64,000 bases of DNA from assembly GCA_035304285.1 (NCBI GenBank), contig DATGQI010000036.1, positions 4,446 through 68,445 on the forward strand, read 5' to 3'. The notes beneath the pieces were generated by a model. It did not search any database. It saw nothing but the letters and a program-made list of their open reading frames with translations, and had not been told where the DNA came from. The position numbers and the translations under genes are program-made. Shown piece after piece: positions 8,845 to 61,104 of the stretch (the stretch's first letter is position 1; each line of letters opens with the position of its first letter). This DNA is from Woeseiaceae bacterium (GTDB lineage Bacteria > Pseudomonadota > Gammaproteobacteria > Steroidobacterales > Woeseiaceae).

Positions 8845-11800
8845 TCAGCGCTCGAGCGTGTAGCTGAGGTCAACGCCCTCCGCGTTCTTCCCGGACGTCG
8901 CCTTGATGCCGAAACCCTTGGCGATGTCGTAGCGTACGCTGATGACATTGCCGCGCTCGAAAAGCCCGATGCCATAGCTGATGTAGAGATCCTGGGCGAT
9001 ATAGGTACCGACATCCACCGCGCCGACCCCCTGTTCATAATTGAAGTCGCTGCCGGTCACAAGGAGAGTCAACGCCCGGTCCCTCGTCGTGGCCGGATTT
9101 GTATAAACCTCGACCTGGGGCTCCTGCGGCGTGCCCGTGACAAGTACCCCCGCATTGCGGATCTGCGGATTGCCGAATATTTCCCGCTCGGCGCGAATGC
9201 GCAGGCTGGGGCTCGATGCCGGGACGCCGGGAAACTGGATCCTTCCCTCGGTGATATCCAGCAATTGCCCGTACGCTTCGAACCTGCCCTGGATGTTGTA
9301 CTGGCCGTTCGCAACCGGCATGTGCGGGCCGTCCCAGTGAAAGGCAGCGGTACCGGCGACGCGAGCCTCGGCGACGTCGAGATCGACAACCACGTCGTCT
9401 CCTAACACCAGCGCCACGGTTCCGTGAATCTCGAACGGAGTCTCGGTTGCGTCTGTTTCCTCCGTCTCTCCGTTACCGTTCGCGACGATCACGACGTCCG
9501 CGCTTTCGCTTATCTTGTCACCCGAGGTCAGATCAACGGGCGTGAGTCTCGCCCGCGGGACAACCACGTTGCCATTGATCGCCAGGCTACCCGCCCGCAC
9601 GCCCAGCACGAGGTCGGTATTCGCCACCACGGTGACGTCCGGCAGGTCGATCAGCGTCAGGTTCTCGCCCGTGAGAGACAAGTCCAGTCCCTCGCGAAAC
9701 CCGCCGAACGAATTGACACTGCTTCGGAGTTCACCGGTGCCGTCGCCGGCGCTGAACGTCGTCTGCAGATCGATCCTGTTGTCTTCGCGAATCATGCTTT
9801 GCATCTGGATGTCACTGAGCACGAGCCCGAGCGGCTCATACCTGAATGAACCATTCTTCAACGAGGCTTCCCCGGTGAACATGGGCTTGCCGAGGGTGCC
9901 TGCTACTCCCAGGTCCACATCCAGTTGACCGCTGGCGTCGTCGATCATAGGCGCAAGGCTGGCAGCAACAGCGATGTCGTTGAGATTTATCGCGAGCCTG
10001 CCTTCAACTTCGCTGTCGGCGCCCATGCTCACGTCCGCTGCCTCGAAACTTGCGTCGATCTCGGCCGAATCCGAAAAAGGCAGCGTCAATCGTCCGGCGA
10101 GCAACTGGCCGTCCACCAGGTTGAAGTGGACCTCGCCCGCACCCGTCTGGGTTGTCATTCTCTCGTCTACGGTGTTCCGGATGTCTCCCGGCGATATGAG
10201 GACGTCTCCTTCTCCCGAGAGCCCACCCTCCCCGCTGCCAATCGAGATCCCGCCGCTCAGCGTCTGCGTGAATTCAAGGTTGGTCTCGAACAGCAGACGA
10301 ATGAGGTTTACCGGGAGCGCTTCCATCTCCGCCGCCAGTGTGAGGTTCGTGCTGCCAGCCCACTCCGTCCCCAGGCAAACCCTCGCTTCCTGGGCCGGCG
10401 CCTGGACTTCCGGACTCCCCTCGCTGCCCACGAGACAGGTGCGCTCAAGCGACACCGATTTTGTCGAAAGCTGCAGGGCAGCAGGCTCCTCGAGCGCGAA
10501 CTCGAGATCTGAAGGCGTCGCGAACCGCAGAGCCTCCAGTTGGCCGCGCCAGGTGGACTGGAGTGGCTGGCGCCAGTTCTCCAAAGCCCCGTCGAACTCA
10601 AGATTCAGCTCCTTTTCCTCTCCCGCCAGGTCGACCAGCAACCGCTGGCGATCCGCCCCGGCGGAAAGCTGCACAACGACACTCTGGAGTTCACGTGCGC
10701 CAGCGGTCAGTCCCGTTCCCTCGGCTGCCAATGCCAGTGGCGTAGCGGGCGGCGCATCGATACTTCTAACCTTGAGCTCTTGCAGCGCGTAGTCGCCCCA
10801 GAACAGCTCCGACGCCTCGAGATCGAGCTGAAGGGAAGGAAACTCATCTGCCATCGAGAAGTTTCCCTGCGCCTGCAGAAAGCCCGCGACATCCGGGTGG
10901 AACGTTTGCAGGGCAGGGACGTCGAGTGAGAAATCCAGTCCCGACCGGCTACTTGCACTTCCGTCCGCCTGCAGTTCGGACTCACCGGATCTCAAGACGA
11001 GCTGCCGGGCAACCAGGTTGCCTCCCGTGTACTGGATTCCGCCCCCGCCTTGCAGTGGTTGCCCGCGAACCGAGCCATCCAGTTGGCGGATGGCAACATC
11101 CACCTGGACAGGATCGAGCTGGCCCTCTGCCGTGAAGTTGCTGCTGATGCGGCCGGGGAATTGCGGCGCTAGCGGGCTGATGTCCAGGTTTCCGGTGGCG
11201 AGATCGGCCGACCAGCGGCTCTGTGCCCAGTTATAGTGGCCGGTGCCGGCCGCCGTGCCGCCCAAGACTTCACTTTCGTGAAGAACCGCTTCGACCTGTT
11301 CGCGATTACCCTGCCCCGTCAGGACGAAAACGCCCTGCGGGAGCGTATCGGTGCGAAAAGCTATCCTCCCGTCGAAGGACCATTCCTCCAGCCTTCCCGC
11401 AACCGTTACAACCCCCGACTCACTGATGAAGCGCGTTGCTGCGTCGACCTCGTTCGACATCGGCCACTGCAAGTCGCTCCAGTCGAGGTGGAGGTCAACC
11501 ACGTTGCCGTCGAGATCGATCTCTCCCGTTGCATCCACCCTTGCCGGCGAATCCTGCACACGCAGACTCACCTCGTTCAGTCTCACGTTGCCGGCCTGCC
11601 ACGCCGCGTCCACGGTTCCGGATACCGGCTGTCCGGCGGGCCAGTTTTGCGTAAGCGCGGCCGGATCGAAGCGTTCGACCTCTGCATCCACCGCGACCGC
11701 AAACCCACCGGACCAGCGAAGCTCGCCGACGGAGGCGGCTGCGAGCATGTCGCCGCGCAAGCTAAGGCTCGACACGGAAAGCCCCTCACTGTTCCCCTCC

Positions 11801-12741
11801 GTGACGATGTCGAAAAGAAGTTCTTCCGTGCCGGCTACCGCGACGGTGCCGACGCCGCTTATTGTGTAAGCCGAAAGGTCGCCCCGCGTTTCGAGATCCG
11901 CCTCGCGCAGGTACACCTGTGGAGGTTGGTCCGGGCCAGTGCGAAGCGGCCATTGGAAATAAGGCGTCTGCACGCGCACGTCCCAGCCCGGTGTCTCGTA
12001 CAACCGGAAAAGCCGGCCTGCAACCTGCACGTCGGGGGCCGCACCCACGACATTGACCTGCAGGTCGGCAAGGCTTCCGGCAGCGATAGCTTTGAAATCG
12101 ACCGGGTGGACCTGGTCGTCGCCCAGCGGAATTGGGTAGCTCCCGGTCAACTCCGCTTCCGCCGGATAGGGCTCGGCCAGTCCGATGTCGATGGAGCCGC
12201 GCAAGGCAACCGCGGACGAATCCAGTTCGAGCCGCGCCAGTGATATCTCATCGTGCCAGTGCCCGGCGAAAGCTGCCTCGTGCAGCCGGAAAATGGGCTC
12301 GTCGGCCGGATTGATGACTTGTAGTTCAGTCACATGCACGTCCTGCATGTTGACGACGAACGGCAGCGCAAGCTTGTCGAGAAAGGGTTCACCGGGATCA
12401 TCGGGCTCGCCCGTTTCCTTCAGCCAAATGTTTACGCGATCTGCGCGAAGTTCAGGAATATCGATCGCAAGAGGGAACAGCACGAGCTGCACCGAGAGCC
12501 TGGCTCTCGCGACCTCGACCTGCACCGCTTCGCTGACGTAGGACACGTCGGTCAGGCTCAGGCCGTCCGCAATCGAGCCCTCGATCGTGGCGGCGCGCAG
12601 CTCCCCAGGGATCATAGGCACCGCACGATCCCAAAGCCAGCGGGAGCCCGACGAGGTCTGCGTCAGCCACGCCACCGCCAGCACTACGATGAGCACGACC
12701 GAAGCGATGGCCAGGAGCGCGTACTTGAGGATGTTGCTCAT
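8845..12741 (-). CDS. tamB: translocation and assembly module subunit TamB
   Basis: About 1298 aa from the internal Met (MSNILKYALLAIASVVLIVVLAVAWL signal-anchor). C-terminal DUF490-type end ...GTYIAQDLYISYGIGLF...DLSYTLER. Its ATG overlaps the tamA stop (ATGA at 12739-12743). Confidence 0.8.
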   Translation of the reverse strand: MSNILKYALLAIASVVLIVVLAVAWLTQTSSGSRWLWDRAVPMIPGELRAATIEGSIADGLSLTDVSYVSEAVQVEVARARLSVQLVLFPLAIDIPELRADRVNIWLKETGEPDDPGEPFLDKLALPFVVNMQDVHVTELQVINPADEPIFRLHEAAFAGHWHDEISLARLELDSSAVALRGSIDIGLAEPYPAEAELTGSYPIPLGDDQVHPVDFKAIAAGSLADLQVNVVGAAPDVQVAGRLFRLYETPGWDVRVQTPYFQWPLRTGPDQPPQVYLREADLETRGDLSAYTISGVGTVAVAGTEELLFDIVTEGNSEGLSVSSLSLRGDMLAAASVGELRWSGGFAVAVDAEVERFDPAALTQNWPAGQPVSGTVDAAWQAGNVRLNEVSLRVQDSPARVDATGEIDLDGNVVDLHLDWSDLQWPMSNEVDAATRFISESGVVTVAGRLEEWSFDGRIAFRTDTLPQGVFVLTGQGNREQVEAVLHESEVLGGTAAGTGHYNWAQSRWSADLATGNLDISPLAPQFPGRISSNFTAEGQLDPVQVDVAIRQLDGSVRGQPLQGGGGIQYTGGNLVARQLVLRSGESELQADGSASSRSGLDFSLDVPALQTFHPDVAGFLQAQGNFSMADEFPSLQLDLEASELFWGDYALQELKVRSIDAPPATPLALAAEGTGLTAGARELQSVVVQLSAGADRQRLLVDLAGEEKELNLEFDGALENWRQPLQSTWRGQLEALRFATPSDLEFALEEPAALQLSTKSVSLERTCLVGSEGSPEVQAPAQEARVCLGTEWAGSTNLTLAAEMEALPVNLIRLLFETNLEFTQTLSGGISIGSGEGGLSGEGDVLISPGDIRNTVDERMTTQTGAGEVHFNLVDGQLLAGRLTLPFSDSAEIDASFEAADVSMGADSEVEGRLAINLNDIAVAASLAPMIDDASGQLDVDLGVAGTLGKPMFTGEASLKNGSFRYEPLGLVLSDIQMQSMIREDNRIDLQTTFSAGDGTGELRSSVNSFGGFREGLDLSLTGENLTLIDLPDVTVVANTDLVLGVRAGSLAINGNVVVPRARLTPVDLTSGDKISESADVVIVANGNGETEETDATETPFEIHGTVALVLGDDVVVDLDVAEARVAGTAAFHWDGPHMPVANGQYNIQGRFEAYGQLLDITEGRIQFPGVPASSPSLRIRAEREIFGNPQIRNAGVLVTGTPQEPQVEVYTNPATTRDRALTLLVTGSDFNYEQGVGAVDVGTYIAQDLYISYGIGLFERGNVISVRYDIAKGFGIKATSGKNAEGVDLSYTLER

Positions 12742-14651
12742 CAGAGAAGCGGCGTGCCTATCGTGAAGTGCACACGCAGCGGTCGACCCTCGATGTCGAG
12801 CGCCTGCGCAACATCGAGGCGCAAAGGCCCGGCGATCGTGTACCAACGGATTCCGATTCCCGCGCCCTTTCGAAGCTGGAAATCGTTCCAGTCGTTGAAC
12901 GCGTTGCCGATGTCGACGAATGCGGCCGCCGACCAATTCTCCAGGACGCGCATTTCGATTTCGGCGCTTGCCGAGATAATGTGGTTCGAGCCGACGTCGT
13001 TGTCGCTCAGATCCTCGAACCTATAGCCACGCACGCTGTTGCTGCCGCCGGCTTTGAAGCGGTACTGGTTCGGCAATCGCGTCAGCGACAATGCGAGTGG
13101 CTCGCCCTCGACGTCGAGCGTGAGGCGGTCAACTTTGGCATCGGTATAACCCACTTCTGCACGCAGCAATAACTTCCAGCGGTCCCGGATGAAGTTCCGG
13201 CGCGACGAGATGTAGAGCTGGGTAAAATCGCGGTCGGAGCCCCAAAGGTCGCTCGACGTGAAGATCCAGGCCCGCTCGTGATGCCCGGTGATGTCGAAAC
13301 CGCTCCCCGTGACGGCCGGCCAGTCCCACTCGACGCCGAGCGCGATCGTCTTCACCGTATCGCTGAAAATGCCGCCGAACTCGGGATGCCGCAACAGGTC
13401 GAGAACTGCAGGGTCCGCATCGACTCCGGGGTCGTAGGAAAAGGATTCCCGCAGGTACTGGGCGAACATCGTCTCGAAGTAGCGCACCTTGCCTTCGTTT
13501 ATATCGCGGACGTACAGCCTGCCGGCGCGGAAGAAGACATCGTCGACATTGCCTGTCGCCAGCTTGATGAAATCCTCATCATCCTCGTGGCGTTTCACTT
13601 CGAGGTCCTGTTTGTCCCTCCTGAGCAGCAAGTTCGCAATCCAGAACTGTCTCTTCTCCACCTGCCTCGGAATGCGGTAGTCGGCCCGTAACGTAAACTG
13701 GTCATCCATCTCCTGGTAACCAATGCCGAGGTCAATGCGATCGCCGCGCGAGGACAGCGGTCGACGGCTCCACAACGCCTGTGTCCTGAACCCGGTATCA
13801 CTGCCAAAGCCCAATGCACCCTGGTAAGTGTTCTTCCACTCAGTTTCCATGCTGGCGACGATGTTTACGGTCGGGGGTGTTTGATCGAGCTGGCGTTGTT
13901 CCTCGACTTCGATATCCGTGAAATACCCGGTCGTCCACAGGTCCAGTCGCAGGCTTTCCACGAGGTCCGGGCGAAATGGAGTTCCGGGGGCGAAACGCGG
14001 CACGTTCGCCAGGGCGTATGGTTCAACCACGTCCTGGACGAAATCGATGGTTCCGAAGACCGCCCGCGTGCCGGTATCGAGTACCAGGGTCAGATGTGCT
14101 TCATTCGCGGCCAGGTCCAGTTCGATCGTGCGGGTGATGAAGTTCGCATTGAGGTAACCCTCGCGATGTGCCAGTGACATGGCCGCCTGTTTCTGCTCCT
14201 CCCAGATCGCCTGGTTGAGTATGCTGCCCTCTCCCAGCGGCCAGGCTCGCCGCCACTCGCGAAGATCCTCCTGTCTTTCCCCGTCCCCACGCAATTCGAT
14301 GTTCGCCTGCTTCACCCGAACCGGCGGCCCGGGCTCGATGCGCAGGTTGATCCGATACCTCTCCCGGCCGGCAGGTGCGACGCTGGTGGAAATGACAGGA
14401 TGGTAAAACCCGAGCGGCTTAAGTGCCTCCCGGGCACGCAGCCGCGCATTTTCGGTGATCTGGTCGAACTGGCCCGCCGATACGCGGGCTATTGTGCCGA
14501 AGCCCACGTCCTCCACATGGCTGCGAACATTCGCCAGCAGCGGCTCCGGTACGCCCGTAATTACCCAGGTAATTTCTTCCGCCGCCGATGTCGCGGCCAG
14601 CAGGAGCACGGCCATCGTGACGGACCCGAGCGCGCCGACACAACGTGTCAC
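12741..14651 (-). CDS. tamA: Omp85-family outer-membrane protein TamA
   Basis: 636 aa with a signal peptide, POTRA-like N-terminal region and C-terminal beta-barrel ending ...GIGIRWYTIAGPLRLDVAQAL...HFTIGTPLL. Translationally coupled to tamB. Confidence 0.8.
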   Translation of the reverse strand: MTRCVGALGSVTMAVLLLAATSAAEEITWVITGVPEPLLANVRSHVEDVGFGTIARVSAGQFDQITENARLRAREALKPLGFYHPVISTSVAPAGRERYRINLRIEPGPPVRVKQANIELRGDGERQEDLREWRRAWPLGEGSILNQAIWEEQKQAAMSLAHREGYLNANFITRTIELDLAANEAHLTLVLDTGTRAVFGTIDFVQDVVEPYALANVPRFAPGTPFRPDLVESLRLDLWTTGYFTDIEVEEQRQLDQTPPTVNIVASMETEWKNTYQGALGFGSDTGFRTQALWSRRPLSSRGDRIDLGIGYQEMDDQFTLRADYRIPRQVEKRQFWIANLLLRRDKQDLEVKRHEDDEDFIKLATGNVDDVFFRAGRLYVRDINEGKVRYFETMFAQYLRESFSYDPGVDADPAVLDLLRHPEFGGIFSDTVKTIALGVEWDWPAVTGSGFDITGHHERAWIFTSSDLWGSDRDFTQLYISSRRNFIRDRWKLLLRAEVGYTDAKVDRLTLDVEGEPLALSLTRLPNQYRFKAGGSNSVRGYRFEDLSDNDVGSNHIISASAEIEMRVLENWSAAAFVDIGNAFNDWNDFQLRKGAGIGIRWYTIAGPLRLDVAQALDIEGRPLRVHFTIGTPLL

Positions 14652-14819
14652 GCCTGAAACTCAACGTCTGCTGATGTCGACATTACTGCATGTGAACCGG
14701 TAACAATTACAAACTCGACGCGCCGCAACTGCCGACGCCTGCGGTGCCGGCAATGATGCTTGCAAAAAACCTGCCACGCTAACTCGCACCAATCCTGGCG
14801 CAGTGTAGGGGAGCGCCCT

Positions 14820-15548
14820 TCAGCGGATCGCGAACGTCGCGTGAATCTGCACGCTGAAACTCTGTTGGCCTGGCGAGATGCTCGGTGCAGCCGCCTCCGC
14901 CATATCGTAACTGCGCGACATCATCGGCCGCGGGGGACCGCCACCGTAGGACGTGGAGAGCGACAGGACTTCACCGAGCTGAACTCCCGCGAGACGGGCG
15001 AGAGACTCCGCGCGTGCCCGTGCGTCAGCCATCGCGGTCTCACGAGCCTCTTGTTCCAGGCCTTTCGTATCCTTGACGCCAAACTGGATGCCGTGGATCG
15101 AGTTTGCGCCTGCGTTGATTACCGCCGCCAGCACATCGCCGATCTTGTCGATGTCGTCGATCTTCACGTTTACGACATTCGACACGCGGTAACCGGTGAT
15201 GCGATTCTGTCCCGGCTCCTGGTAATTCTGCTCTGCCCATATGCTGTAGTTGGATGTCTGGATCCTCTCCGGGTCGATGCCCTGTTCATCCAGCGCTGCC
15301 ATGATCTTCTCGATGATCGACTCGTTCTCGCGCGTTGCCTCTACGACAGTCTCGGCCAGGATCTGGACACCCGCGCTCACGGAAGCCTGGTCGGGCGCCC
15401 CCGAGGCCTCACCCTCGCCCGTCACCGTGATGCTGCGCACTTCTGTGAAAGTGTTGTGTTGATCCGTACATGCGGCCACGGACATTGCCGCCAACAAAAT
15501 CGTTGCGTTTAGCGTTGCCGGCCACTTGATCGGTCGTGATGTTTTCAC
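14820..15548 (-). CDS. SIMPL-domain (DUF541) periplasmic lipoprotein
   Basis: GTG start at 15548 is preceded by AAGGAG. Lipobox LLAAMSVAAC. SIMPL-like body (ITVTGEGEASGAPDQASVSAGV ... GQQSFSVQIHATFAI). Confidence 0.75.
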   Translation of the reverse strand: MKTSRPIKWPATLNATILLAAMSVAACTDQHNTFTEVRSITVTGEGEASGAPDQASVSAGVQILAETVVEATRENESIIEKIMAALDEQGIDPERIQTSNYSIWAEQNYQEPGQNRITGYRVSNVVNVKIDDIDKIGDVLAAVINAGANSIHGIQFGVKDTKGLEQEARETAMADARARAESLARLAGVQLGEVLSLSTSYGGGPPRPMMSRSYDMAEAAAPSISPGQQSFSVQIHATFAIR

Positions 15549-15727
15549 GTTACAGCTCCTTTTTGTTGACGCACCACCGGGCGCCCGCATTTCGAACGCT
15601 CCGGAAGGAGCGCGCATTCTAGTCGATGTTCGTAGCGCATCCCCGATCGCGCGATTTGACAATTTCCCGTGCAATCAGGTTCCTGGCAATTGACACTGGC
15701 GAATGCCCTGTGCAACGATCCTTCCTC

Positions 15728-15812
15728 GTTTGATAAAGGCACACCTTTCGAAAGGAAGGGCCGCAAAGCCACCGGTCTAAGGGAATATCCTATGACAGCG
15801 GGGTTGCCGACA
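15728..15812 (+). promoter_or_regulatory. c-di-GMP-I (GEMM-I) riboswitch aptamer, copy 1
   Basis: AAAGGCACACCUUUCGAAAGGAAGGGCCGCAAAGCCACCGGUCUAAGG...GACAGCGGGGUUGCC matches the GEMM-I core as in Vc2: GGCAAACC..UCGAAAG..GGACGCAAAGCC.CCGG.CUAA...UAGCGGGGUUACC. Includes a GAAA tetraloop hairpin (CCUUUC/GGAAGG). Confidence 0.85.
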
Positions 15813-15979
15813 CGACAGCTACTACGCGACGAGCATTCCGAAGCCCGTTCGCAGGCAACCCGCCCTCATAGATGCAGCGGACCAGACTGAGAGTCTGCCG
15901 CCAATTCCCGCCCGGAAACCGCGCGGTGTCCTTATTCGGACACGGCATTCGACCGTGTCGGTGCGGACGGGAGAGCAGC

Positions 15980-17347
15980 ATGTCAGTCAAAGCCATAAGA
16001 CTTCGCGATACCGGGAAAATCGGCCGGCGAACCCAGCCCAGGCCATGCACCATCCGCCCGACCAGCTTAAAGCAACTGAGACAGTGTCTCGAGCGAGGCT
16101 CAGCATACCTGGCGCCGTTTCGTCCGATGGGTGCCAATAGCTCGTCCACGGATTGCACGTCCGCGACGGCGGGCACGGTCATCGATATGACCGGATTTGA
16201 CGAAATCATCAACATAGATGCCTACAACGATACCGCTGTCGTCCAGGCAGGCGTTCGCCTGGGGAGGCTGGCGAGCGCCCTTGCAGAGCACGGCCTCGAG
16301 CTTGCGGGAAGCCATGACCTCATGAGCCGAACCGTCGGCGGGGCGGTGGCCGGCGGCTGCATCGGCCCCTCGATCTCCAGCGACGGCGCCTACTTCGCCT
16401 CGCAAGTGCTGAGCATGAAGCTCGTTACCCCTTCCGGGCGCCTGCTGGCGCTCTCCCGCGAGAAGCAGAACCTGCTGAATGCGTTCCGACTCAGTTACGG
16501 AATGCTCGGGGTAATCTACGAGGTGACGCTGAAAGTGCGGCCGATCAGCCCGTTTGCAGTGTCGCACCGGCGCTGTTCGATTGCCCAATTCGCCGCCGCG
16601 GCGGAAAAACTGTCCCGGACCGACATCGGCATCAAGTTCTACCTCCTGCCGTTTCGCGATTGCGCGTACCTCGACCTGCGGCGGTACAGCCGCGAAGCCA
16701 CCTCCACGCATAAGATCCCGTGGAAGCTGAAGGACTGGGGGGAAAGTACAGTGCTGCCGCAGGTCTTCAAATCGTTGAACCGCATCGTCCCGGTAGCGGG
16801 CGTGCGTTACCGCATCATTGACGAGATCAGCAAGGTCACGCAGAACATCGTCAACAACAGGCTCGTGACGTCCGGCAGCAACTCCACTGCGCTCGCGAGC
16901 GGAGATCACGCGAAGCACCATGGTGAACGGCTCAGGTATTCCACCTGGATGTTCCCCGCGGCTGATTTTTCGATCGTCGTCCAGGCGTACAAGGATTTTT
17001 GCCTGCGCATCAGGAACGAAACCGGATTCCGCTGCGATATGCCGACTGTCGGGTTCAGGTTGTGCCGCGACCAGTCGGCCTTGCTTTCACCATCCTTCGA
17101 TGAACCGATGTTCGTATTGCGCGCCGTGTCTACGCAGGCGCGTGGTTGGGAAGACTTTGCCATCGATTTCGGTGAGTTCGCCCAGCACTGGGGAGGGATG
17201 CCGTTCTTCAACCAGACACGCGGGCTGTCGCCTGGGTACGCAGGACAGGTGTTCGGCAGCAGGCTCGACTTCTTCAAGCGGATGCGACGGCGCATCGATC
17301 CCGAAGACAGGATGATGAACCCGTTCTTGCTGCAGTATTTTCTCTGA
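15980..17347 (+). CDS. FAD-binding (PCMH-type) oxidoreductase, ALO/DprE1-like
   Basis: Start at the internal Met, preceded by GGGAGAG. Has an FAD_binding_4-like segment (...VVQAGVRLGRLASALAEHGLELAGSHDLMSRTVGGAVAGG...) and a C-terminal oxidase-type domain ending ...RIDPEDRMMNPFLLQYFL. It is the only gene downstream of riboswitch 1. Confidence 0.75.
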   Translation: MSVKAIRLRDTGKIGRRTQPRPCTIRPTSLKQLRQCLERGSAYLAPFRPMGANSSSTDCTSATAGTVIDMTGFDEIINIDAYNDTAVVQAGVRLGRLASALAEHGLELAGSHDLMSRTVGGAVAGGCIGPSISSDGAYFASQVLSMKLVTPSGRLLALSREKQNLLNAFRLSYGMLGVIYEVTLKVRPISPFAVSHRRCSIAQFAAAAEKLSRTDIGIKFYLLPFRDCAYLDLRRYSREATSTHKIPWKLKDWGESTVLPQVFKSLNRIVPVAGVRYRIIDEISKVTQNIVNNRLVTSGSNSTALASGDHAKHHGERLRYSTWMFPAADFSIVVQAYKDFCLRIRNETGFRCDMPTVGFRLCRDQSALLSPSFDEPMFVLRAVSTQARGWEDFAIDFGEFAQHWGGMPFFNQTRGLSPGYAGQVFGSRLDFFKRMRRRIDPEDRMMNPFLLQYFL

Positions 17348-17372: not shown

Positions 17373-18647
17373 TCATGAGGAATGAGCAATGGCCGCCGGC
17401 TTTCGGGGAACTTCCTTCTCACGCGATGCAGCTAAGGCCGCGCGTACGTCCTGCCCGCTCGGGTACTGGTACACGTGCAGGCCGAACTCTCCGACGATCG
17501 ACAAGATGTGGTCGAAGATATCGCTCTGTATACCTTCGTACTCCACCCACGCCGTCGTGTTGGTGAACGTGTAGATCTCGATCGGCAGCCCCTGGCTGTC
17601 CGGGGCGAGCTGGCGCACGATCATGGTCATCTGCTGGTTGATCTTCGGATGGTTTTTGATGTAATTCAGGATGTACGCGCGGTAAGTGCCGATGTTCGTG
17701 AGGCGCCGCAGGTTCACGCCCTCCCTGTCTTCGTCACTCAGGCTCGCCGCATAATCCCGGAGCTGCTCTTCTTTCCGGTCGATGTACTCCCGGAGCAGCG
17801 CGAAGCGCCGGAAGCGCTGCACTTCCTCCTCGGTCAGGACCCGAATGGATTCGATGTCGATGCGTATGGAGCGCTTGATCCGGCGCCCGCCTGATTCGGA
17901 CATGCCGCGCCAGTTGCGGAACGAATCGGAAATCAGCGCGTGCGTGGGAATGGTCGTGATGGTCTTGTCCCAGTTCTGCACCTTGATGGTGTGCAGCGCC
18001 ACGTCTATCACGTCACCGTCGGCGTCGTACTTCGGCATCTCTATCCAGTCGCCGACGCGCACCATGTCCTGCGCCGTGAGTTGCACGCTCGCAACGAGCC
18101 CGAGGATCGTGTCCTTGAATACGAGCATCAGCACGGCGGTCATTGCGCCGAAGCCACCAAGCAGGAGCGTCGGCGACTTTTCTATGAGCGTGGCGACAAT
18201 GAGGATCCCGCCGACGATATAGATAACCAGCTGCGCCAGCTGGACGAAGCCCTTGATCGGCTTGTGGCGGGCAGCCGGCTTCAGCGAGTAGATGTTGTTG
18301 ATCGCGCTAAGTGCAGCCGCGAGGCTGCGCACGACCATCAGGATGACGGTCGCCATGGCGACGTTGCGGATCAGGCTGACCCACACATCCGGCAGGTCCG
18401 GGATCAGCCGAACGCCGCTGTAGATGATCAGGGCAGGCACGACCAGCGCGAACCGGCCGAATACCTTTTCTCCGGAGAGCGCGCCATGCCAGTCCTCGCG
18501 CGTATGCCGTGTGACGACGTTGGAGGCACGGGTCAGGACAAGCCTGGTGATGAAGTGCGCAGTGACGGCGGCAAACAGCAACAGTAGCAGTGCAGTCGCC
18601 GACATCAGTGCCGGGTGTATTTCGTTTAGTTGTTCAATCATCGGCAT
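17373..18647 (-). CDS. ybdG: MscS-family miniconductance mechanosensitive channel (YbdG/MscM-like)
   Basis: 424 aa. Long collinear similarity to E. coli YbdG as I recall it (GDWIEMPKYDADGDVIDVALHTIKVQNWDKTITTIPT...SGGRRIKRSIRIDIESIR...MIVRQLAPDSQGLPIEIYTFTN). Confidence 0.8.
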   Translation of the reverse strand: MPMIEQLNEIHPALMSATALLLLLFAAVTAHFITRLVLTRASNVVTRHTREDWHGALSGEKVFGRFALVVPALIIYSGVRLIPDLPDVWVSLIRNVAMATVILMVVRSLAAALSAINNIYSLKPAARHKPIKGFVQLAQLVIYIVGGILIVATLIEKSPTLLLGGFGAMTAVLMLVFKDTILGLVASVQLTAQDMVRVGDWIEMPKYDADGDVIDVALHTIKVQNWDKTITTIPTHALISDSFRNWRGMSESGGRRIKRSIRIDIESIRVLTEEEVQRFRRFALLREYIDRKEEQLRDYAASLSDEDREGVNLRRLTNIGTYRAYILNYIKNHPKINQQMTMIVRQLAPDSQGLPIEIYTFTNTTAWVEYEGIQSDIFDHILSIVGEFGLHVYQYPSGQDVRAALAASREKEVPRKPAAIAHSS

Positions 18648-18793
18648 TCTTGCTTCCGCCGCGACCTTAACGGCTGTCGCCGCATTTATCCAGCCACGAG
18701 TGGCGCGTTATCAATCCAAATCCCGGCATCGCGCATCTAAGTGTATTGACGGCGCGAATCACGGCACAGGCCATTCTTCGGGACGCGCCGGAC

Positions 18794-18821
18794 TTGTGTT
18801 ATGGTTCTCTAGTGTTATACT
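18794..18821 (+). promoter_or_regulatory. candidate sigma-70 promoter of the RND operon (TTGTGT-16 nt-TGtTATACT)
   Basis: -35-like ttgtgt at 18794-18799, and an extended -10 (tgt tatact) at 18813-18821. Lies 84 nt upstream of the first adaptor gene. Confidence 0.4.
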
Positions 18822-18835
18822 CAACTATAACACTA
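18810..18835. promoter_or_regulatory. candidate repressor operator, 10-bp inverted repeat TAGTGTTATA-N6-TATAACACTA
   Basis: A perfect 10+10 palindrome overlaps the putative -10. An additional half-site-like tgtgttat lies at 18796-18803. Confidence 0.5.
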
Positions 18836-18904
18836 CCACTAGCAATCCGGTTTACTCGGTCTGAACGCGGCGGGATGAGCAGGTCCTGCCGCCCTGGTGA
18901 GATA

Positions 18905-19978
18905 ATGACTAAAAAATCAATCATTTACTACCTCTGTGTTCTTTCCGCCGCCGGCGTCGCAGGTTGTGGTGCCGGCGAAGCCAGCGTCGGGGAGGTCCCG
19001 GAGACGGAAGTTCTGATGCCGGTCGAGGTTGTGCTTCCCGAGTCCATGGACATGTTCGAGACTTTCGAGACGGCGGCGACCATCGAGTCCGACGCCGAAG
19101 CAGCCGTCCTTACGCGTGCCGCCGGCGAAGTTGTCGAGATCCTGGTGGAGGAAGGTGAGCGCGTCGAGGAAGGACAGGTACTGGCACGCCTTGACGGAGA
19201 GCGGCTCCGCCTGCAGATGCAAAAGGCCAAAGCCAGCCTGGACATGACCTCGAGGGAATATGAGCGCTTCGTGAGTTTGCGGCACCGCGGCCTCGTGAGC
19301 GCGTCGGCGGTCGAAGGTCTGAAGTTCGACGTGGATGCTCTTCGCGCAACCTACGAATTGATGCGCCTGAACTACCACTACACGAAGGTCCGGGCGCCGA
19401 TCTCGGGTGTGATCTCGAGCCGGGACGTAAAGGTCGGTACCCACGTCGACGCCGGCGCGCCCGTTTTCAGCATCACCGAGACCTCAAAACTGGTGGCGTA
19501 CCTGCACATACCGCAAGTAGAACTCTCGAGGATCAACACGGGTGACGAGGTCCTTGTACAGGCGGACGCGATCCCCGGACACGAGTTCAGGGCGAAGCTC
19601 TCGCGCATCAGCCCGACGATCGACGCCCGGAACGGTACCTTCCGCGCCACCGTCTACATCGACAACAGGGAACAACTCCTGGCCCCGGGCATGTTCAGCC
19701 GCTTCGGCATAAATTTTCAAGAGCACGCGGACGCGCTGGTGGTCCCGACACGCGCACTCGTAGAGGAGGACGGCGTTCACGTGGTGTACGTGGTGAACGA
19801 CGGTTCGGCCAAACGTCGTGTGGTGCAGGTCGGAATTGCTTCGCGAGGCGTGACGGAAATCCTGGCAGGTCTCGACTCGAGCGACAGAGTGGTGGTTACG
19901 GGCCAGGCAAGCCTCCGCGACGGCAGCAAGGTCTTAGCGAGCCTTGCCGGTGACGCAAGCGACCGCGGCACGGGCTAG
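18905..19978 (+). CDS. efflux RND periplasmic adaptor (MFP) subunit 1, lipoprotein
   Basis: Start at the internal Met (MTKKSIIYYLCVLSAAGVAGC lipobox). HlyD/MFP pattern (coiled-coil hairpin, ...YTKVRAPISGVIS..., beta-barrel and MP domains). Confidence 0.85.
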   Translation: MTKKSIIYYLCVLSAAGVAGCGAGEASVGEVPETEVLMPVEVVLPESMDMFETFETAATIESDAEAAVLTRAAGEVVEILVEEGERVEEGQVLARLDGERLRLQMQKAKASLDMTSREYERFVSLRHRGLVSASAVEGLKFDVDALRATYELMRLNYHYTKVRAPISGVISSRDVKVGTHVDAGAPVFSITETSKLVAYLHIPQVELSRINTGDEVLVQADAIPGHEFRAKLSRISPTIDARNGTFRATVYIDNREQLLAPGMFSRFGINFQEHADALVVPTRALVEEDGVHVVYVVNDGSAKRRVVQVGIASRGVTEILAGLDSSDRVVVTGQASLRDGSKVLASLAGDASDRGTG

Positions 19979-20025
19979 CTAAGCGTCGTGAATAATGAGG
20001 AATTGCGGGGAGCGCTGTTTCAGAG

Positions 20026-21132
20026 ATGGAGATGACTATGGTTCCGTGGCGTCGGCGGGCAGCGTTGCTGATGCTGTCGGTGATGATCGTTGCGTGCGGA
20101 CAAGGCGCGGGCGAAGAAGACATCGACACGAAGGAAGAAGCCCCCGCGATTCCCGTCGAAATAACCACACCATCGCGAGGGGACATCTACGCCGTTTACT
20201 CCGGGACCGCACCAATAGAGGCATTCGCTGACGCGCAGGTGATTGCGAAAGTAGGTGGTGAGGTTCGCGAGATTTATGTGGAGGAAGGCGACGACGTGGT
20301 TGCGGGACAGGTCCTGTTGCGCCTCGACGGAGACCGCCTGCGTTTCGAAGCGCAACAGGCTGAAGCGAATCTTCTCAAGCTGCAGCGCGATTTCCAGCGC
20401 AACCTGGACTTGAAAGACCGCAGTCTCATAAGCGCCGGCGACTTCGAGAAAATTCAGTACGAGATGGAGGCGCTACAGGCAACTGCGAGCCTTGCGAAAC
20501 TGGAACTCAGCTATACGGAAATCCGCGCGCCTATCGCGGGCATCGTTTCCCATCGCTATGTAAAGGTCGGGAACACGATCGAGGTCAATGCGCCCACTTT
20601 CCAGATCACAAGCCTGGAACCCCTCGTTTCCTACCTGCATGTGCCGGAGCGCGAGTACCGTCGCATCGAGCGTGGGCAAACCGCGACAATCGCGGTAGAC
20701 GCTTTGCAGGGGATTCGCTTCGAAGGCACGATTGCGCGAGTCAGCCCTGTCGTCGACCCGCTGACCGGCACCTTCAAGATCACGATTGAAGTATCCGATT
20801 CGAGCCGAAGCCTGAAACCCGGGATGTTCGGTCGAATCAGCATCGTATACGACAAGCACGAAAACGCCCTGCAGATCCCGCGTAACGCCATCCTCCAGGA
20901 GGCGGGGGAGCCCGCGGTGTTCGTCGTGAATGGCGATACGGCTCACCGCCGCCCGGTCAGCACCGGGTACGTCCAGGGCACCCGGATAGAGATACTCGAC
21001 GGCCTGGCCGACGGCGACCGCCTGGTTCTCGTAGGGCAGACGGGCCTGAAGGACGGATCGAAGGTGTCGGTGATAAATGCCGACGAAGCGGATATCAGCG
21101 CTGCCAGCACCAACCTGCCGGCGTCCGAATAG
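20026..21132 (+). CDS. efflux RND periplasmic adaptor (MFP) subunit 2, lipoprotein
   Basis: 368 aa. Lipobox LSVMIVAC. Paralogous MFP pattern (...YTEIRAPIAGIVSHRYVKVGN...). Confidence 0.85.
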   Translation: MEMTMVPWRRRAALLMLSVMIVACGQGAGEEDIDTKEEAPAIPVEITTPSRGDIYAVYSGTAPIEAFADAQVIAKVGGEVREIYVEEGDDVVAGQVLLRLDGDRLRFEAQQAEANLLKLQRDFQRNLDLKDRSLISAGDFEKIQYEMEALQATASLAKLELSYTEIRAPIAGIVSHRYVKVGNTIEVNAPTFQITSLEPLVSYLHVPEREYRRIERGQTATIAVDALQGIRFEGTIARVSPVVDPLTGTFKITIEVSDSSRSLKPGMFGRISIVYDKHENALQIPRNAILQEAGEPAVFVVNGDTAHRRPVSTGYVQGTRIEILDGLADGDRLVLVGQTGLKDGSKVSVINADEADISAASTNLPASE

Positions 21133-57767: not shown

Positions 57768-57852
57768 CGCTTGATAAAGGCACACCTTCCGAAAGGAAGC
57801 GTCGCAAAGCCACCGGTCTACGGTTTTTAACTACGACAGCGGGGTTACCAGC
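57768..57852 (+). promoter_or_regulatory. c-di-GMP-I (GEMM-I) riboswitch aptamer, copy 2
   Basis: AAAGGCACACCUUCCGAAAGGAAGCGUCGCAAAGCCACCGGUCUACGG...GACAGCGGGGUUACC. 47 of the first 50 core nt are identical to copy 1. The 3' strand ends 3 nt before the ATG at 57853. Confidence 0.85.
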
Positions 57853-59280
57853 ATGACCTTTTTATTGAACATCACCCCATGGCCTTTACTGTCGGCACTT
57901 CTGTGGATAGTGCTCGTCGTGACATCGCTATATTTCGCGCGGCCGACTGCGCACAAGGCGATTCGTGCGGCGGCCCTGGCGCTGCATCGCACGTTGAGGC
58001 TCGCCTCTATGGGCGTAAGGAAGGCGGAAGCGGGACTCGCACAACGCAATCGAGAGGTCTTGCTTGCTGCCGGGCGCGAAGCGAAGGAAAGAATCGTCGA
58101 GCGTGAGTTTGATCGTGTAAACGAAACCGTACGCAAGGATCTTGCAAACTACTCCACGCTGCATCGCGCGTTGAGCGAGTCGATCAATCGCATCGAGACG
58201 GATCACCAGGCGGCAGTCGACGTGCCGCCGGACCCACCGGGGTGGGTGAAAGCCGTCGAAGCTGTTGCGAAAATTGATTCCCGTGAAGGCAGGGTCGGCA
58301 TTGGAAACGTGCTGACTGACATACACCGCTCGCTGGTCAAGGCGCACCAGGAGGCAATGGTTGCGTATCGCGAGGCCAGTGCGGACCGTCATGCCTACCT
58401 CAGGAAGATGCGTCCCGAATGGCGCCAGATCCAGCAGACGCTGGGGCAGGTCGGCAAGAACGTCGACAGCCTGCTGAGCCGCTCCGTCACCATCGATCGC
58501 CACATGAAGGATTACGAGGACATCATCAGCGGCCACGACCGCTCTGTGTCCGTGCTGTCGTCCTCATCGCTGGTGTACTTCTTCGTGTCGGCACTCGTCC
58601 TCATGGTTGCCGCGGGCGGTGCGACGATCAACTTCTCCCTGATTGCCCGGCCCATGGCTGAAATGGTGGGAGGCACCAGCCTGATCGGAGGCTTCCGCAC
58701 CGCCGACATTGCGGCACTCGTGATCATCATGGTCGAGATTTCGATGGGACTGTTCCTGATGGAATCGCTTCGGATCACGCGGCTGTTTCCGGTCATCGGC
58801 GCGCTGCCAGACAAGGTCCGGGTGCGTATGATCTGGATCACTTTCACGATCCTGCTGATGCTGGCAACAGTCGAAGCGGGGCTGGCCTATATGCGCGAGG
58901 TGCTGCTGCACGACGAACTCGCGACCAGTGCGCTATTGCGCGGCGACGTGAGCGACGGCCTTACCGGCCAGTACCTCTGGATTACGACGGCCGCGCAGAT
59001 GGGCATGGGATTCATCCTGCCTTTCGCGCTGACGTTCGTCGCGATTCCCCTTGAGACCTTCGTCCATTCGCTGCGAACCGTGCTTGGCCTCGCCGGCATA
59101 GGCTTACTTCGGCTCACGGCGCTGCTGCTGCGTGTACTGGGGAACGCCTGCCGTTATCTCGGCTCGCTGGTCGAGCAACTGTATGACCTGCCGCTGTTCG
59201 TGCCACTGTGGCTCGAGTCGCGCTACGGCGATCTCGGATCGAAATCCAGGAGCGGCTCATTGCGGGAGGCGCGGACGTGA
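57853..59280 (+). CDS. uncharacterised polytopic membrane protein (riboswitch-controlled)
   Basis: 475 aa. N-terminal TM helix (PLLSALLWIVLVVTSLYF). About 200 aa of charged helical region. At least 5 C-terminal hydrophobic helices. I recognise no family. Confidence 0.7.
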   Translation: MTFLLNITPWPLLSALLWIVLVVTSLYFARPTAHKAIRAAALALHRTLRLASMGVRKAEAGLAQRNREVLLAAGREAKERIVEREFDRVNETVRKDLANYSTLHRALSESINRIETDHQAAVDVPPDPPGWVKAVEAVAKIDSREGRVGIGNVLTDIHRSLVKAHQEAMVAYREASADRHAYLRKMRPEWRQIQQTLGQVGKNVDSLLSRSVTIDRHMKDYEDIISGHDRSVSVLSSSSLVYFFVSALVLMVAAGGATINFSLIARPMAEMVGGTSLIGGFRTADIAALVIIMVEISMGLFLMESLRITRLFPVIGALPDKVRVRMIWITFTILLMLATVEAGLAYMREVLLHDELATSALLRGDVSDGLTGQYLWITTAAQMGMGFILPFALTFVAIPLETFVHSLRTVLGLAGIGLLRLTALLLRVLGNACRYLGSLVEQLYDLPLFVPLWLESRYGDLGSKSRSGSLREART

Positions 59281-59915
59281 GAAAACTTCTTGGCGCGCTG
59301 GCAGCCGTCGTGCTGCTCGGCTGCACCCAACCGACCCCGGGCAACACCGGCGTATACATGCTGCTCGACACATCCGGTACATATCGGGAAGAGCTGCAAA
59401 AGGCGGAACAAATCATCCGCTACACGCTGTCCAGGCTGGACGCGGCGGACACATTCGCCGTGGCTCGCATAGACACCGGCAGCTTCAGCGAGAAGGACAT
59501 CGTGGCCAAGACCTCCTTCGACGACCGCCCCAGCACGATCAACCGGCAAAAGCGCCTGTTCGCGGAGCAGATCAGTACATTCGTCAGCGATACCGAATCC
59601 TCGCCCTACACCGATATCACAGGCGGATTGTTGCAAGCGGTCGAGTTCCTGAATGAGAAAGGCTCGGGCAGGAAAGCGATCCTGATCTTCTCGGATCTGA
59701 AGGAAGACCTGCAGGACGGATACGTTCGTAACGATATTCCCTTCGACCTCGACGGCTTCGAAGTGATCGCATTGAACGTGACGAAGCTGCGCTCCGATAA
59801 CGTAGATCCGCGCGAGTACCTCTCGAGGCTCAGCACGTGGCAGGCGCGGGTGGAAAACTCGGGTGGCCGGTGGAGGGTGATCAATGATCTGGACGGCCTG
59901 GAGGGCCTGCTGTAG
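59277..59915 (+). CDS. lipoprotein with VWA-like domain (MIDAS-type DxSGT motif)
   Basis: GTG start overlaps the upstream stop (GTGA) and is preceded by GGGAGG. Lipobox AVVLLGC. VYMLLDTSGTY...YTDITGG...ILIFSDLKED follows the VWA beta-alpha pattern. Confidence 0.65.
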   Translation: MRKLLGALAAVVLLGCTQPTPGNTGVYMLLDTSGTYREELQKAEQIIRYTLSRLDAADTFAVARIDTGSFSEKDIVAKTSFDDRPSTINRQKRLFAEQISTFVSDTESSPYTDITGGLLQAVEFLNEKGSGRKAILIFSDLKEDLQDGYVRNDIPFDLDGFEVIALNVTKLRSDNVDPREYLSRLSTWQARVENSGGRWRVINDLDGLEGLL

Positions 59916-60030: not shown

Positions 60031-61104
60031 TCAGGCTCCCGGTTTCGTACCCGCAACGGTAACGCGGTCGCGCCCCTCGCGCTTGCTCTGGTAGAGAGCG
60101 GCATCGGCAAGTGCGACCAACTGCTCCGGCGATACGGAGTCGCCGCGATTGCGCATCGCAACGCCGATGCTGATGCTAGCCGGCACGGAACCACCTCGTG
60201 TACGTATGGGCAGCGAGCGCATACCCTCGCAGATGCGCTCGCCGAGGGCCCTGCAGCCTTTTTCGTCAATGTCTTGGACGATGACGAGGAATTCCTCTCC
60301 ACCCCAGCGGCAAACGATATCCTGCGGGCGCACCGAGGCGACGATTGAGCCGGCCACGCGGCGCAGCACCTGGTCGCCCACCTGGTGCCCGAACTGGTCG
60401 TTGACCTGCTTGAAGTTGTCGATGTCGGCGAGGCAGATGCCGAGGGAGTGGTTGTGCTTCTGTGCTTCCATCAGCGCCGAGCTCAGGAGATCGGTGGCGC
60501 CGCGTCGGTTCCAAAGCCGGGTCAGGGGATCAAACATAGCCTGCCGACGTGCTTCGCCGAGCTTGGTGACCATCGCCGACTGCGCGTTGCTCAACTCGAC
60601 AGAAAACAGCTCCCTTTGCGCCATGTCACCCAAATCGGTGAGCGTGGCGGCGAAATCGGGATCGGGTTTTCGCGGTTTCAGGTCCATGACGCAGAACGTG
60701 CCGATCGTTTTGCCTTCGGAATCCCGAATCGGGAAACCGGCGTAGAACCTGATTTTCGGAGCCTTGCAGACCACGGGACTGCTCATCATGTAGAGATCTT
60801 CAAGCGTGTCCGGAACCACCATTTGCCTGCCCTCGCGGATCACCTCCGCACAAAGGCTCTTACTCATCGGTAGCTCCGTGACCTGCCAGCCTGAAACGGA
60901 CTTGAACCACTGCCGGTCCCCGTGTACGACCGTGATTGCCGCGATGGGTACGTTCAGTGCGCGCCTCGCGAGCCGTGTGATGCGCTCAAAGCGTTCTTCC
61001 AGGGGAGTATAGAACGGATCCAGCGAATGCAGATTTGCGAGTTTCAGCGTTGCCGTACTCGCCACGGTACGGCTTAAAGCTGTCTCATCATCGAACCTGG
61101 ACAT
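60031..61104 (-). CDS. GAF-GGDEF diguanylate cyclase with I-site
   Basis: 357 aa. GAF-like N-terminus. RPQD (RxxD I-site) lies five residues before GGEEF. Confidence 0.9.
   Translation of the reverse strand: MSRFDDETALSRTVASTATLKLANLHSLDPFYTPLEERFERITRLARRALNVPIAAITVVHGDRQWFKSVSGWQVTELPMSKSLCAEVIREGRQMVVPDTLEDLYMMSSPVVCKAPKIRFYAGFPIRDSEGKTIGTFCVMDLKPRKPDPDFAATLTDLGDMAQRELFSVELSNAQSAMVTKLGEARRQAMFDPLTRLWNRRGATDLLSSALMEAQKHNHSLGICLADIDNFKQVNDQFGHQVGDQVLRRVAGSIVASVRPQDIVCRWGGEEFLVIVQDIDEKGCRALGERICEGMRSLPIRTRGGSVPASISIGVAMRNRGDSVSPEQLVALADAALYQSKREGRDRVTVAGTKPGA

Follow-up and report, generated by a model that had tools for sequence, protein, structure and literature searches.

A canonical c-di-GMP-I riboswitch aptamer is paired with an orphan flavoenzyme gene in Woeseiaceae and related bacteria

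Introduction

The regulon of cyclic di-GMP (c-di-GMP) is usually described as one of motility, adhesion and signalling proteins. The GEMM RNAs owe both their name and their reputation to the many and varied genes that lie downstream of them (PMC7266159), and a new target is therefore unsurprising in itself. In the class-I aptamer Vc2 of Vibrio cholerae, the ligand is contacted by G20 through a Hoogsteen interaction with G-alpha, by intercalation of A47, and by Watson-Crick pairing of C92 with G-beta (PMC5888326). Here, we describe a class-I c-di-GMP (GEMM-I) riboswitch that precedes a gene for a flavin adenine dinucleotide (FAD)-dependent oxidoreductase in a 64,000-nucleotide stretch of a Woeseiaceae bacterium (GenBank assembly GCA_035304285.1, contig DATGQI010000036.1, positions 4,446 to 68,445 of the forward strand). 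This whole stretch is called the window, and positions refer to it unless a locus is named. Woeseiaceae are among the most abundant marine-sediment bacteria, Steroidobacteraceae are common in soils, and we know of almost nothing on the roles of c-di-GMP in either family.

Like Vc2 and other class-I riboswitches, the RNA described here matches the covariance model over its full length, has the P1/P2/P3 layout and the contacts G20, A47 and C92, carries a GAAA tetraloop and CUAAG/UAUG receptor-like bases in P3 that may dock with each other, and lies on the sense strand in a 5' untranslated region. Unlike them, it stands before an orphan flavoenzyme gene rather than a gene for motility, pili, adhesins, chitin binding, or GGDEF or EAL proteins, its hosts are Woeseiales, Steroidobacterales and related metagenome-assembled genomes (MAGs), and its expression platform in the window is long and terminator-free. 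At the P2 junction, the window reads GGCACACC in place of the RF01051 consensus GGCAAACC. We consider it very likely that a canonical c-di-GMP riboswitch heads a monocistronic flavoenzyme mRNA in this locus, with control likely to be exerted on translation by alternative folds. In our literature search, no paper connected Woeseiaceae with c-di-GMP, and none reported a FAD oxidoreductase as the target of a c-di-GMP riboswitch. The RNA class itself is well known; as far as the searchable literature shows, what is new is the target, an orphan flavoenzyme family, and a coupling retained down to 33% enzyme identity.

Riboswitch aptamer and its gene

The elements of the riboswitch-gene pair and the two genes next to it are as follows.

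15726-15819, forward strand: c-di-GMP-I (GEMM-I) aptamer including P1 (RF01051 match at 15728-15811, covariation)
15750-15753, forward strand: GAAA tetraloop of the aptamer, in P2 (sequence)
15980-17347, forward strand: monocistronic gene for a 455-residue FAD-dependent oxidoreductase (Pfam, NCBIfam, AlphaFold model, alignments)
17373-18647, reverse strand: MscS channel gene, convergent, 25 nt past the flavoenzyme stop codon
14820-15548, reverse strand: SIMPL/DUF541 gene, divergent, upstream

The whole 64-kb window was searched by cmscan at the Rfam gathering thresholds, which gave two matches, both to RF01051 (c-di-GMP-I), at 15728-15811 and 57769-57852 on the forward strand. The first covers the full model (1-87) with an E-value of 9.8e-15. 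Its covariance-model alignment places G20 at G 15738, which is unpaired and just 5' of the first P2 pair, A47 at A 15765, which follows the CGC of P2, and C92 at C 15807, the first C past the P3 3' strand. These three columns were invariant across an alignment of 54 aptamers, comprising the window's two and 52 from the upstream regions of orthologous genes. The same alignment supports the P1/P2/P3 structure, with 90% of cells paired and both-side changes in 15 of 28 pairs, values that 500 column shuffles never reached; as a control, pairing fell to 35-53% when the partners were shifted by 1-3 columns. P1 pairing is weaker (72%). The P2 hairpin covaries strongly, including one pair that changes from U-A to G-C in 21 sequences, and the GAAA loop and the CUAAG ... 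UAUG bases of P3 are present and nearly invariant. Segment 15726-15819 belongs to the canonical class-I c-di-GMP riboswitch aptamers.

An earlier reading of this DNA by a model that ran no database searches (the original prediction) had placed a GEMM-I aptamer at about 15728-15812, had proposed an RF01051 covariance-model search as a check, and had aligned a G by eye with Vc2 G20 in favour of c-di-GMP over 3',3'-cyclic GMP-AMP (cGAMP). The search returned a significant match at nearly the same place (82.5 bits against a gathering threshold of 35), and the G at 15738, together with A47 and C92, upholds the by-eye alignment and the preference for c-di-GMP. The gene had also been described as monocistronic, which agrees with its flanks: the next gene, MscS, is on the opposite strand and convergent, so the flavoenzyme gene stands alone, and SIMPL/DUF541 is divergent upstream. 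An operon with downstream genes is thereby excluded for the window. The start codon at 15980 is backed by a Shine-Dalgarno (SD) sequence, GGGAGAG, and by the same 455-residue gene-caller start in six close relatives. An alternative start at 15872 (491 residues) was rejected; its extension is unconserved, and gene callers use the 455-residue start on the relatives.

Conservation of the riboswitch-enzyme pair

A scan of enzyme relatives with one genome per species gave 61 loci, nearly all from Woeseiaceae MAGs (45-87% identity), of which 55 scanned loci include upstream DNA. In 54 of these 55, a same-strand GEMM-I match precedes the start codon by 15-180 nt. When L056, which fell outside the Rfam batches and was scanned by a custom covariance model, is added, 55 of 56 Woeseiaceae-type loci have a riboswitch, with enzyme identities of 45-96%. 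All relatives found are MAGs or metagenomes, with no cultured carrier among the hits, and every named family relative is MAG-derived.

The pairing extends to two more distant clades. A metagenome scan with a single protein gave six loci, and in 'Chromatiales' MAGs (P0137, 34% identity) both intact metagenome loci (L062 and L063) have a GEMM-I at a distance of about 180 nt upstream, and these aptamers have GCGA/GAGA loops, a shortened P3 and canonical contact bases. In Steroidobacteraceae MAGs (L078-L081, 33% identity), which NCBI taxonomy places in a different order from Woeseiaceae, GEMM-I lies about 100 nt upstream at two distinct loci. One further locus, L064, was not counted as riboswitch-less. 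Its encoded N-terminus is 100% identical to that of P0137 (L064 1100-1446 versus L063 1505-1807); the aptamer is missing because, some 150 nt before the start, the contig departs from L063 and runs into coding-like sequence, probably through an assembly chimera or a rearrangement.

The flavoenzyme gene is the only constant partner of the aptamer across these lineages, and the upstream neighbours differ by locus (SIMPL, DUF4412, Zn-peptidase, PLD, PALP, CDGSH plus Mla). The window and its close relatives have TamB-TamA-SIMPL flanks; other Woeseiaceae have DUF4412, a Zn-peptidase, a PLD-type phospholipid synthase or a pyridoxal-phosphate (PLP) enzyme; and Steroidobacteraceae have CDGSH and a Mla-type ABC system upstream with ferritin downstream. 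In L078 and L079 the neighbours on both sides are on the opposite strand, and in L080 and L081 a Na+/H+ exchanger gene lies upstream on the same strand. Since the pairing is kept at 33% identity in a reshuffled neighbourhood, there is good evidence from these comparisons that c-di-GMP is functionally tied to the chemistry of the flavoenzyme.

Two exceptions count against this reading. L043 is the sole Woeseiaceae-type orthologue in which neither Rfam nor the custom model (E <= 1) found a riboswitch, and none was found in the P0130 lineage (L082). Only about 85-125 nt (L043 3865-3989) separate the L043 gene from a divergent PLD-like gene. No GEMM-I was found in the three loci examined of homologues at about 30% identity (Terriglobia, Bryobacteraceae and Stigmatella), which keep the histidine of the GSxHS motif.

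Downstream, most loci have a PadR-HlyD-AcrB efflux operon at a distance of 40-400 nt, which is not universal. In 12 loci of one Woeseiaceae subclade, a class-I S-adenosylmethionine methyltransferase gene, likewise not universal, lies 13-80 nt downstream on the same strand (e.g., L011-L017 and L019; L012 5384-6160), and none of its best NCBIfam matches comes near the cut-off. Co-transcription, and thus control by the same riboswitch, is probable.

The flavoenzyme

The enzyme matches Pfam FAD_binding_4 (PF01565) with 83.6 bits (gathering threshold 26.4, E-value 1.3e-23). Its match to ALO (PF04030), 20.2 bits, is below the threshold of 23.1, yet spans positions 1-255 of 258. PADLOC gave no defence-system match for it. 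Its homologues number more than 1200, and at E <= 1e-30 the family is of modest size, forming 74 clusters at 50% identity. By sequence, the closest solved structures, to which the FAD domain alone aligns, are L-galactono-1,4-lactone dehydrogenase (GalLDH), then xylitol/alditol oxidase and DprE1; the FAD-domain match to GalLDH has an E-value of 2e-18 with the single sequence and 5e-34 with the family profile. A first AlphaFold model from a shallow multiple sequence alignment (mean predicted local distance difference test, pLDDT, 60) was uninformative in Foldseek, with a template modelling (TM) score of about 0.33, and was replaced. The model from a diverse alignment with members of about 30% identity reached pLDDT 85.4 and a predicted TM score of 0.85. 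Its Foldseek neighbours, at 16-20% identity, are GalLDH (8qnr/8qnb, TM 0.73-0.76), alditol oxidase (8ot8/2vfs, 0.70-0.81) and DprE1 (about 0.66-0.72). On this predicted structure, the enzyme is a two-domain protein of the VAO/PCMH fold with an ALO-type cap, in the ALO/AldO/DprE1 branch. A helical insertion is present at about residues 240-316. The family hallmark is GGxP(L/F)FNQT, read as HWGGMPFFNQTR in the window enzyme, and the histidine of the GSxHS motif is replaced by Asn (PMGANSSST), which places the enzyme in a histidine-less clade with predicted non-covalent FAD. No signal peptide or hydrophobic N-terminus was read from the translation, and the 455-residue enzyme is therefore probably cytoplasmic.

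Compared with GalLDH, L-gulonolactone oxidase (GULO) and alditol oxidase, the two-domain fold (TM 0.70-0.81), the FAD_binding_4 domain (E 1e-18 to 1e-34) and a C-terminal DPxxR motif are shared. The differences are the 16-20% identity, scores below all curated cut-offs, the missing flavinylation histidine in the window clade and, relative to aldonolactone oxidases, HWGG in place of HWxK, the separate GGxP(L/F)FNQT motif and the helical insertion. The HWxK lysine motif of ALO enzymes, the flavinylation histidine and Lys418 of DprE1 are used here in their usual family definitions; by eye, the HWxK segment and the Lys418 region read HWGGMPFFNQTR, the latter aligning to FFNQTR. With mycobacterial DprE1 the enzyme shares the fold branch and, by prediction, non-covalent FAD. 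It differs from DprE1 in its score (63 bits against 500), in the absence of DprE2, UbiA and arabinosyltransferase genes nearby, and in a Lys418 region that is unconserved by eye.

Distant members (26-32% identity) are fused to short-chain dehydrogenase/reductase (SDR) domains (P0148, P0151, P0162), to an MpaB/Lcp rubber-oxygenase-like domain (P0163) or to a GMC domain (P0187). The SDR fusions recall the DprE1/DprE2 oxidase-reductase epimerisation pair. They occur only in homologues of 26-31% identity, not in the riboswitch-linked clades. In a Terriglobia MAG (L070 1511-7371), the gene follows one for a 1473-residue cholesterol-oxidase-like GMC protein and precedes one for a GAF-GGDEF-HD-GYP protein, and some distant members adjoin a YhhN protein. 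By analogy, these fusions and neighbours, which come from the riboswitch-less clade, hint at lipid-like or lipid-linked alcohols as much as at free sugars. On the structural model, the probable reaction is oxidation of an alcohol group carried by a sugar-like or lipid-linked substrate; against this stands the fact that the fold neighbours on which the substrate assignment rests are only 16-20% identical.

The original prediction of a meaningful link between riboswitch and enzyme is strengthened by its recurrence in three deep clades. Its PCMH-type, ALO/DprE1-like label holds at the level of the fold, as given by Foldseek, and fails as an assignment to ALO, GULO or DprE1 orthologues, whose cut-offs are not reached and whose signature residues are missing. 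Its suggestion that a sugar or exopolysaccharide precursor is modified found little to build on: no exopolysaccharide or glycosyltransferase genes lie beside the flavoenzyme gene in any lineage, and the sole support is that the closest folds oxidise sugar-type alcohols.

Ligand class and enzyme assignment

The RNA might sense another cyclic dinucleotide (3',3'-cGAMP or another), or belong to the class RF03167 ('c-di-GMP-I-GGC') with a perhaps different specificity, a reading that we regard as very improbable. It draws on the Rfam clan competition, which gives the RF03167 label to roughly 40% of orthologous aptamers and to every match in the two distant clades, many with scores of 60-73 bits against a gathering threshold of 59. 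These labels and high scores arise because the RF03167 model includes P1, not because of the variant base. The RF03167 consensus ACGCGAAgC has G at position 47, where the window aptamer reads CCGCAAAGC with A at 47, and L027 aligned to RF03167 mismatches precisely at this G. The bases CGCAAA, not CGCGAA, are found in all 54 aligned aptamers and likewise, by sequence, in L034, L040, L056, L062, L063, L078 and L080. Membership in the 'GGC variant' was thus rejected; its defining G47 is absent in every aptamer inspected, and the matches are near-ties. The cGAMP-selective GEMM-Ib RNAs reportedly carry A20 (attributed to Kellenberger and to Nelson, both 2015 and cited in PMC7266159). Position 20 is G at 15738 and in all aligned orthologues, an invariance that argues against a cGAMP-type switch, and this candidate was also set aside.

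The loci labelled RF03167 despite A47, for which the model with P1 yields marginally better E-values, are L002, L009, L014, L016, L018, L020, L021, L023, L026-L028, L032, L035, L037, L039, L042, L046-L049, L062, L063 and L078-L081. Such mislabelling of canonical aptamers could mislead automated annotation into reporting riboswitches of variant specificity.

It is similarly improbable, if somewhat less so, that the enzyme is an ordinary aldonolactone oxidase or dehydrogenase of the ascorbate type, or a DprE1 orthologue, with an incidental riboswitch. Its best sequence and fold matches are indeed GalLDH, alditol oxidase and DprE1, and JGI annotators call close homologues 'L-gulonolactone oxidase'. 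Against these matches, the NCBIfam scores are far under the curated cut-offs (TIGR01679, 120 against 292; TIGR01678, 65 against 397; TIGR01676, 59 against 458; DprE1 NF053785, 63 against 500), the GSxHS histidine is Asn (MGANSSS), and the HWxK lysine and the Lys418 region are replaced, the DprE1 alignment being by eye. No DprE2/SDR or UbiA partner was found among the neighbours in the 61 loci. The riboswitch link cannot be incidental, because it is kept at 33-34% enzyme identity with unrelated flanks.

Leader architecture and mode of control

The following elements were identified around the aptamer.

15690-15719, forward strand: probable sigma-70 promoter (inferred from conservation)
15690-15695, forward strand: -35 element TTGACA (conservation in relatives)
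15711-15712, forward strand: extended -10 TG, ending an 18-nt spacer
15714-15719, forward strand: -10 element AACGAT (conservation in relatives)
15826-15852, forward strand: leader hairpin H1, GCGACG ... CGUUCGC (conservation and folding)
15854-15863, forward strand: anti-aptamer (switching) segment GGCAACCCGC (complementary to the aptamer 3' strand GCGGGGUUGCC at 15798-15808)
15969-15975, forward strand: SD sequence GGGAGAG (GGAG core 6 nt before the ATG at 15980)

The promoter elements, as ATTGACA and TGCAACGAT, are unchanged in eight close relatives while the bases around them vary. A strict consensus promoter scan found none, because the -10 element fits the consensus at only three of six positions. 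From the promoter position, the transcript would open with the first base of P1, near 15726, and the aptamer would stand at the 5' end of the mRNA. Several close relatives keep a second TTGACA block, ATTTGACAATTTCC (15654-15667), about 35 nt 5' of the -35 element proposed here. This block could represent another promoter, or else an operator that also serves the divergent SIMPL gene.

The leader between aptamer and ATG is 168 nt long. No terminator-like hairpin with a U-run was found between aptamer and start codon by scanning, nor in orthologous leaders by inspection. Hairpin H1 persists in seven close relatives, among which a single compensatory change (GCGAC/GUCGC to GCGGC/GCCGC) is seen, and its 3' arm CCCGUUCGC (15845-15853) is complementary to GCGGACGGG, just 5' of and overlapping the SD sequence; this alternative pairing appears in the leader-only and bound-state minimum free energy (MFE) structures. 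The helix between GGCAACCCGC and GCGGGGUUGCC is in the RNAalifold consensus of seven relatives, is kept in all seven with only G-C to G-U type changes, and also forms in the window MFE structure. When the aptamer strand is withheld to mimic the bound state in relatives L073-L075, the same segment, extended by GCUCUC (GGCAAUCCGCUCUC), pairs with GGGAGAGCG and the AUG. Most long-leader orthologues have related elements, GGCAAYCC. The GGAG of the SD sequence is invariant in eight relatives, and the SD sequence is mostly base-paired in the predicted ensembles (unpaired probability 0.31-0.34 in the window). In many orthologues the leader is very short, at 15-85 nt, and a strong hairpin that contains the SD sequence immediately precedes the AUG.

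In the mechanism that we propose, c-di-GMP would bind the aptamer and lock its 3' strand (GCGGGGUUGCC and the P1 3' strand), and in the ligand-free RNA this strand would pair instead with GGCAACCCGC, about 45 nt downstream. The two mutually exclusive leader folds would alter the accessibility of the SD sequence and start codon, so that control would most likely act at translation initiation, possibly with secondary effects on Rho termination or decay, rather than through an intrinsic terminator. Because a terminator is absent, an anti-aptamer segment is present and the SD sequence is occluded, translational control through such folds is probable on the predicted structures.

The direction of control is less certain, and comparative folding inclines us only slightly to repression by c-di-GMP (OFF). 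Predicted SD accessibility in the free state was at least that of the bound state in all eight close relatives (e.g., 0.53 free and 0.18 bound in L073, 0.31 and 0.06 in L075), and among 53 orthologues 16 leaned OFF and five ON. Over the same 53, the mean accessibility of aptamer-constrained and unconstrained ensembles, 0.26 versus 0.23, is indecisive for either direction. Several observations count against the proposed switching. In the window itself, accessibility changes negligibly (0.34 free, 0.31 bound), the SD sequence being largely paired in both states. The GCUCUC anti-SD of L073-L076 is degraded to GCCUUA in L072, the closest relative, and has a mismatch in the window, where it reads GCCCUC; aptamer-tail/anti-SD duplex energies are no better than those of shuffled tails (median z about 0). 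The distant clades show no consistent direction, partly owing to the doubtful start codon used for L062 and L063, and we infer c-di-GMP binding and regulation from homology. A model in which the aptamer tail mimics the SD strand, striking by eye in the short-leader GUGUCUUUGGCA...UGCCGGAGACA subclade, failed a shuffle test and was rejected.

The opposite direction, in which c-di-GMP would free the ribosome-binding site and induce the flavoenzyme at high c-di-GMP, that is, in the sessile or biofilm state, appears less probable than repression while retaining some appeal. The SD sequence is mostly paired even without constraint, and a default-off leader opened by ligand is conceivable; the bound state is predicted to be the more accessible one in five of the 53 orthologues and in L062; and in the 15-nt leader of L033 only the P1 5' strand (AUUCC) could, by eye, pair with GGAAU at the start codon. 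Such an ON switch is at odds with the lean of the close relatives and of the broad set, and with the separate downstream switching segment, whose sequence complements the aptamer 3' strand and, in several relatives, the SD sequence too, a three-element OFF layout. An action on transcription, by Rho-dependent termination or mRNA decay within the leader, seems unlikely. The leader is long, its C-rich stretches CCCGCCCUC and UUCCCGCCCGG could load Rho, and the near-identical accessibility of the two states in the window would suit such an action. It is disfavoured by the absence of an intrinsic terminator and by the many orthologous leaders of 15-85 nt whose SD hairpin before the AUG fits translational control, and a Rho effect could itself follow from blocked translation.

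Functional implications

A riboswitch names its regulon directly; here, it points to one orphan flavoenzyme, which offers a testable entry into an uncharacterised family and adds a redox enzyme to the c-di-GMP riboswitch regulon. Tentatively, the histidine-less clade with the GGxP(L/F)FNQT motif might be a dedicated c-di-GMP output in Woeseiales, Steroidobacterales and related Gammaproteobacteria, in which riboswitch-gated, DprE1-like oxidation of a sugar-like or lipid-linked alcohol would alter a component of the envelope, or would produce or degrade a small signalling metabolite, in the motile-sessile switch. If true, this would be a dedicated-output pathway without a characterised counterpart.

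Genomic context

The riboswitch-gene pair is flanked in the window by a TamB-TamA-SIMPL/DUF541 envelope-biogenesis cluster (8845-15548, reverse strand) and, on the other side, by two tandem genes for HlyD-type membrane-fusion proteins of a resistance-nodulation-division (RND) efflux system (18746-21132, forward strand). The MscS gene is inserted in the window and in the 96%-identical relative L072, and is not found in the relatives of 83-89% identity.

Second riboswitch in the window

The second Rfam match of the window is the following element.

57769-57852, forward strand: second GEMM-I aptamer, canonical (RF01051, 72.1 bits)

This aptamer ends right at the ATG (57853) of a gene for a 475-residue multi-pass membrane protein (57853-59280, forward strand), for which no Pfam, NCBIfam or PADLOC match was found. 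Bases resembling an SD sequence occur only as GCGGGG, 8 nt 5' of the AUG and within the P3 3' strand, an arrangement that suggests a compact OFF switch. A weak VWA-like open reading frame (59208-59915, forward strand) overlaps the 3' end of the 475-residue gene, and a gene for a GAF-GGDEF diguanylate cyclase (60031-61104, reverse strand) lies about 750 nt downstream.

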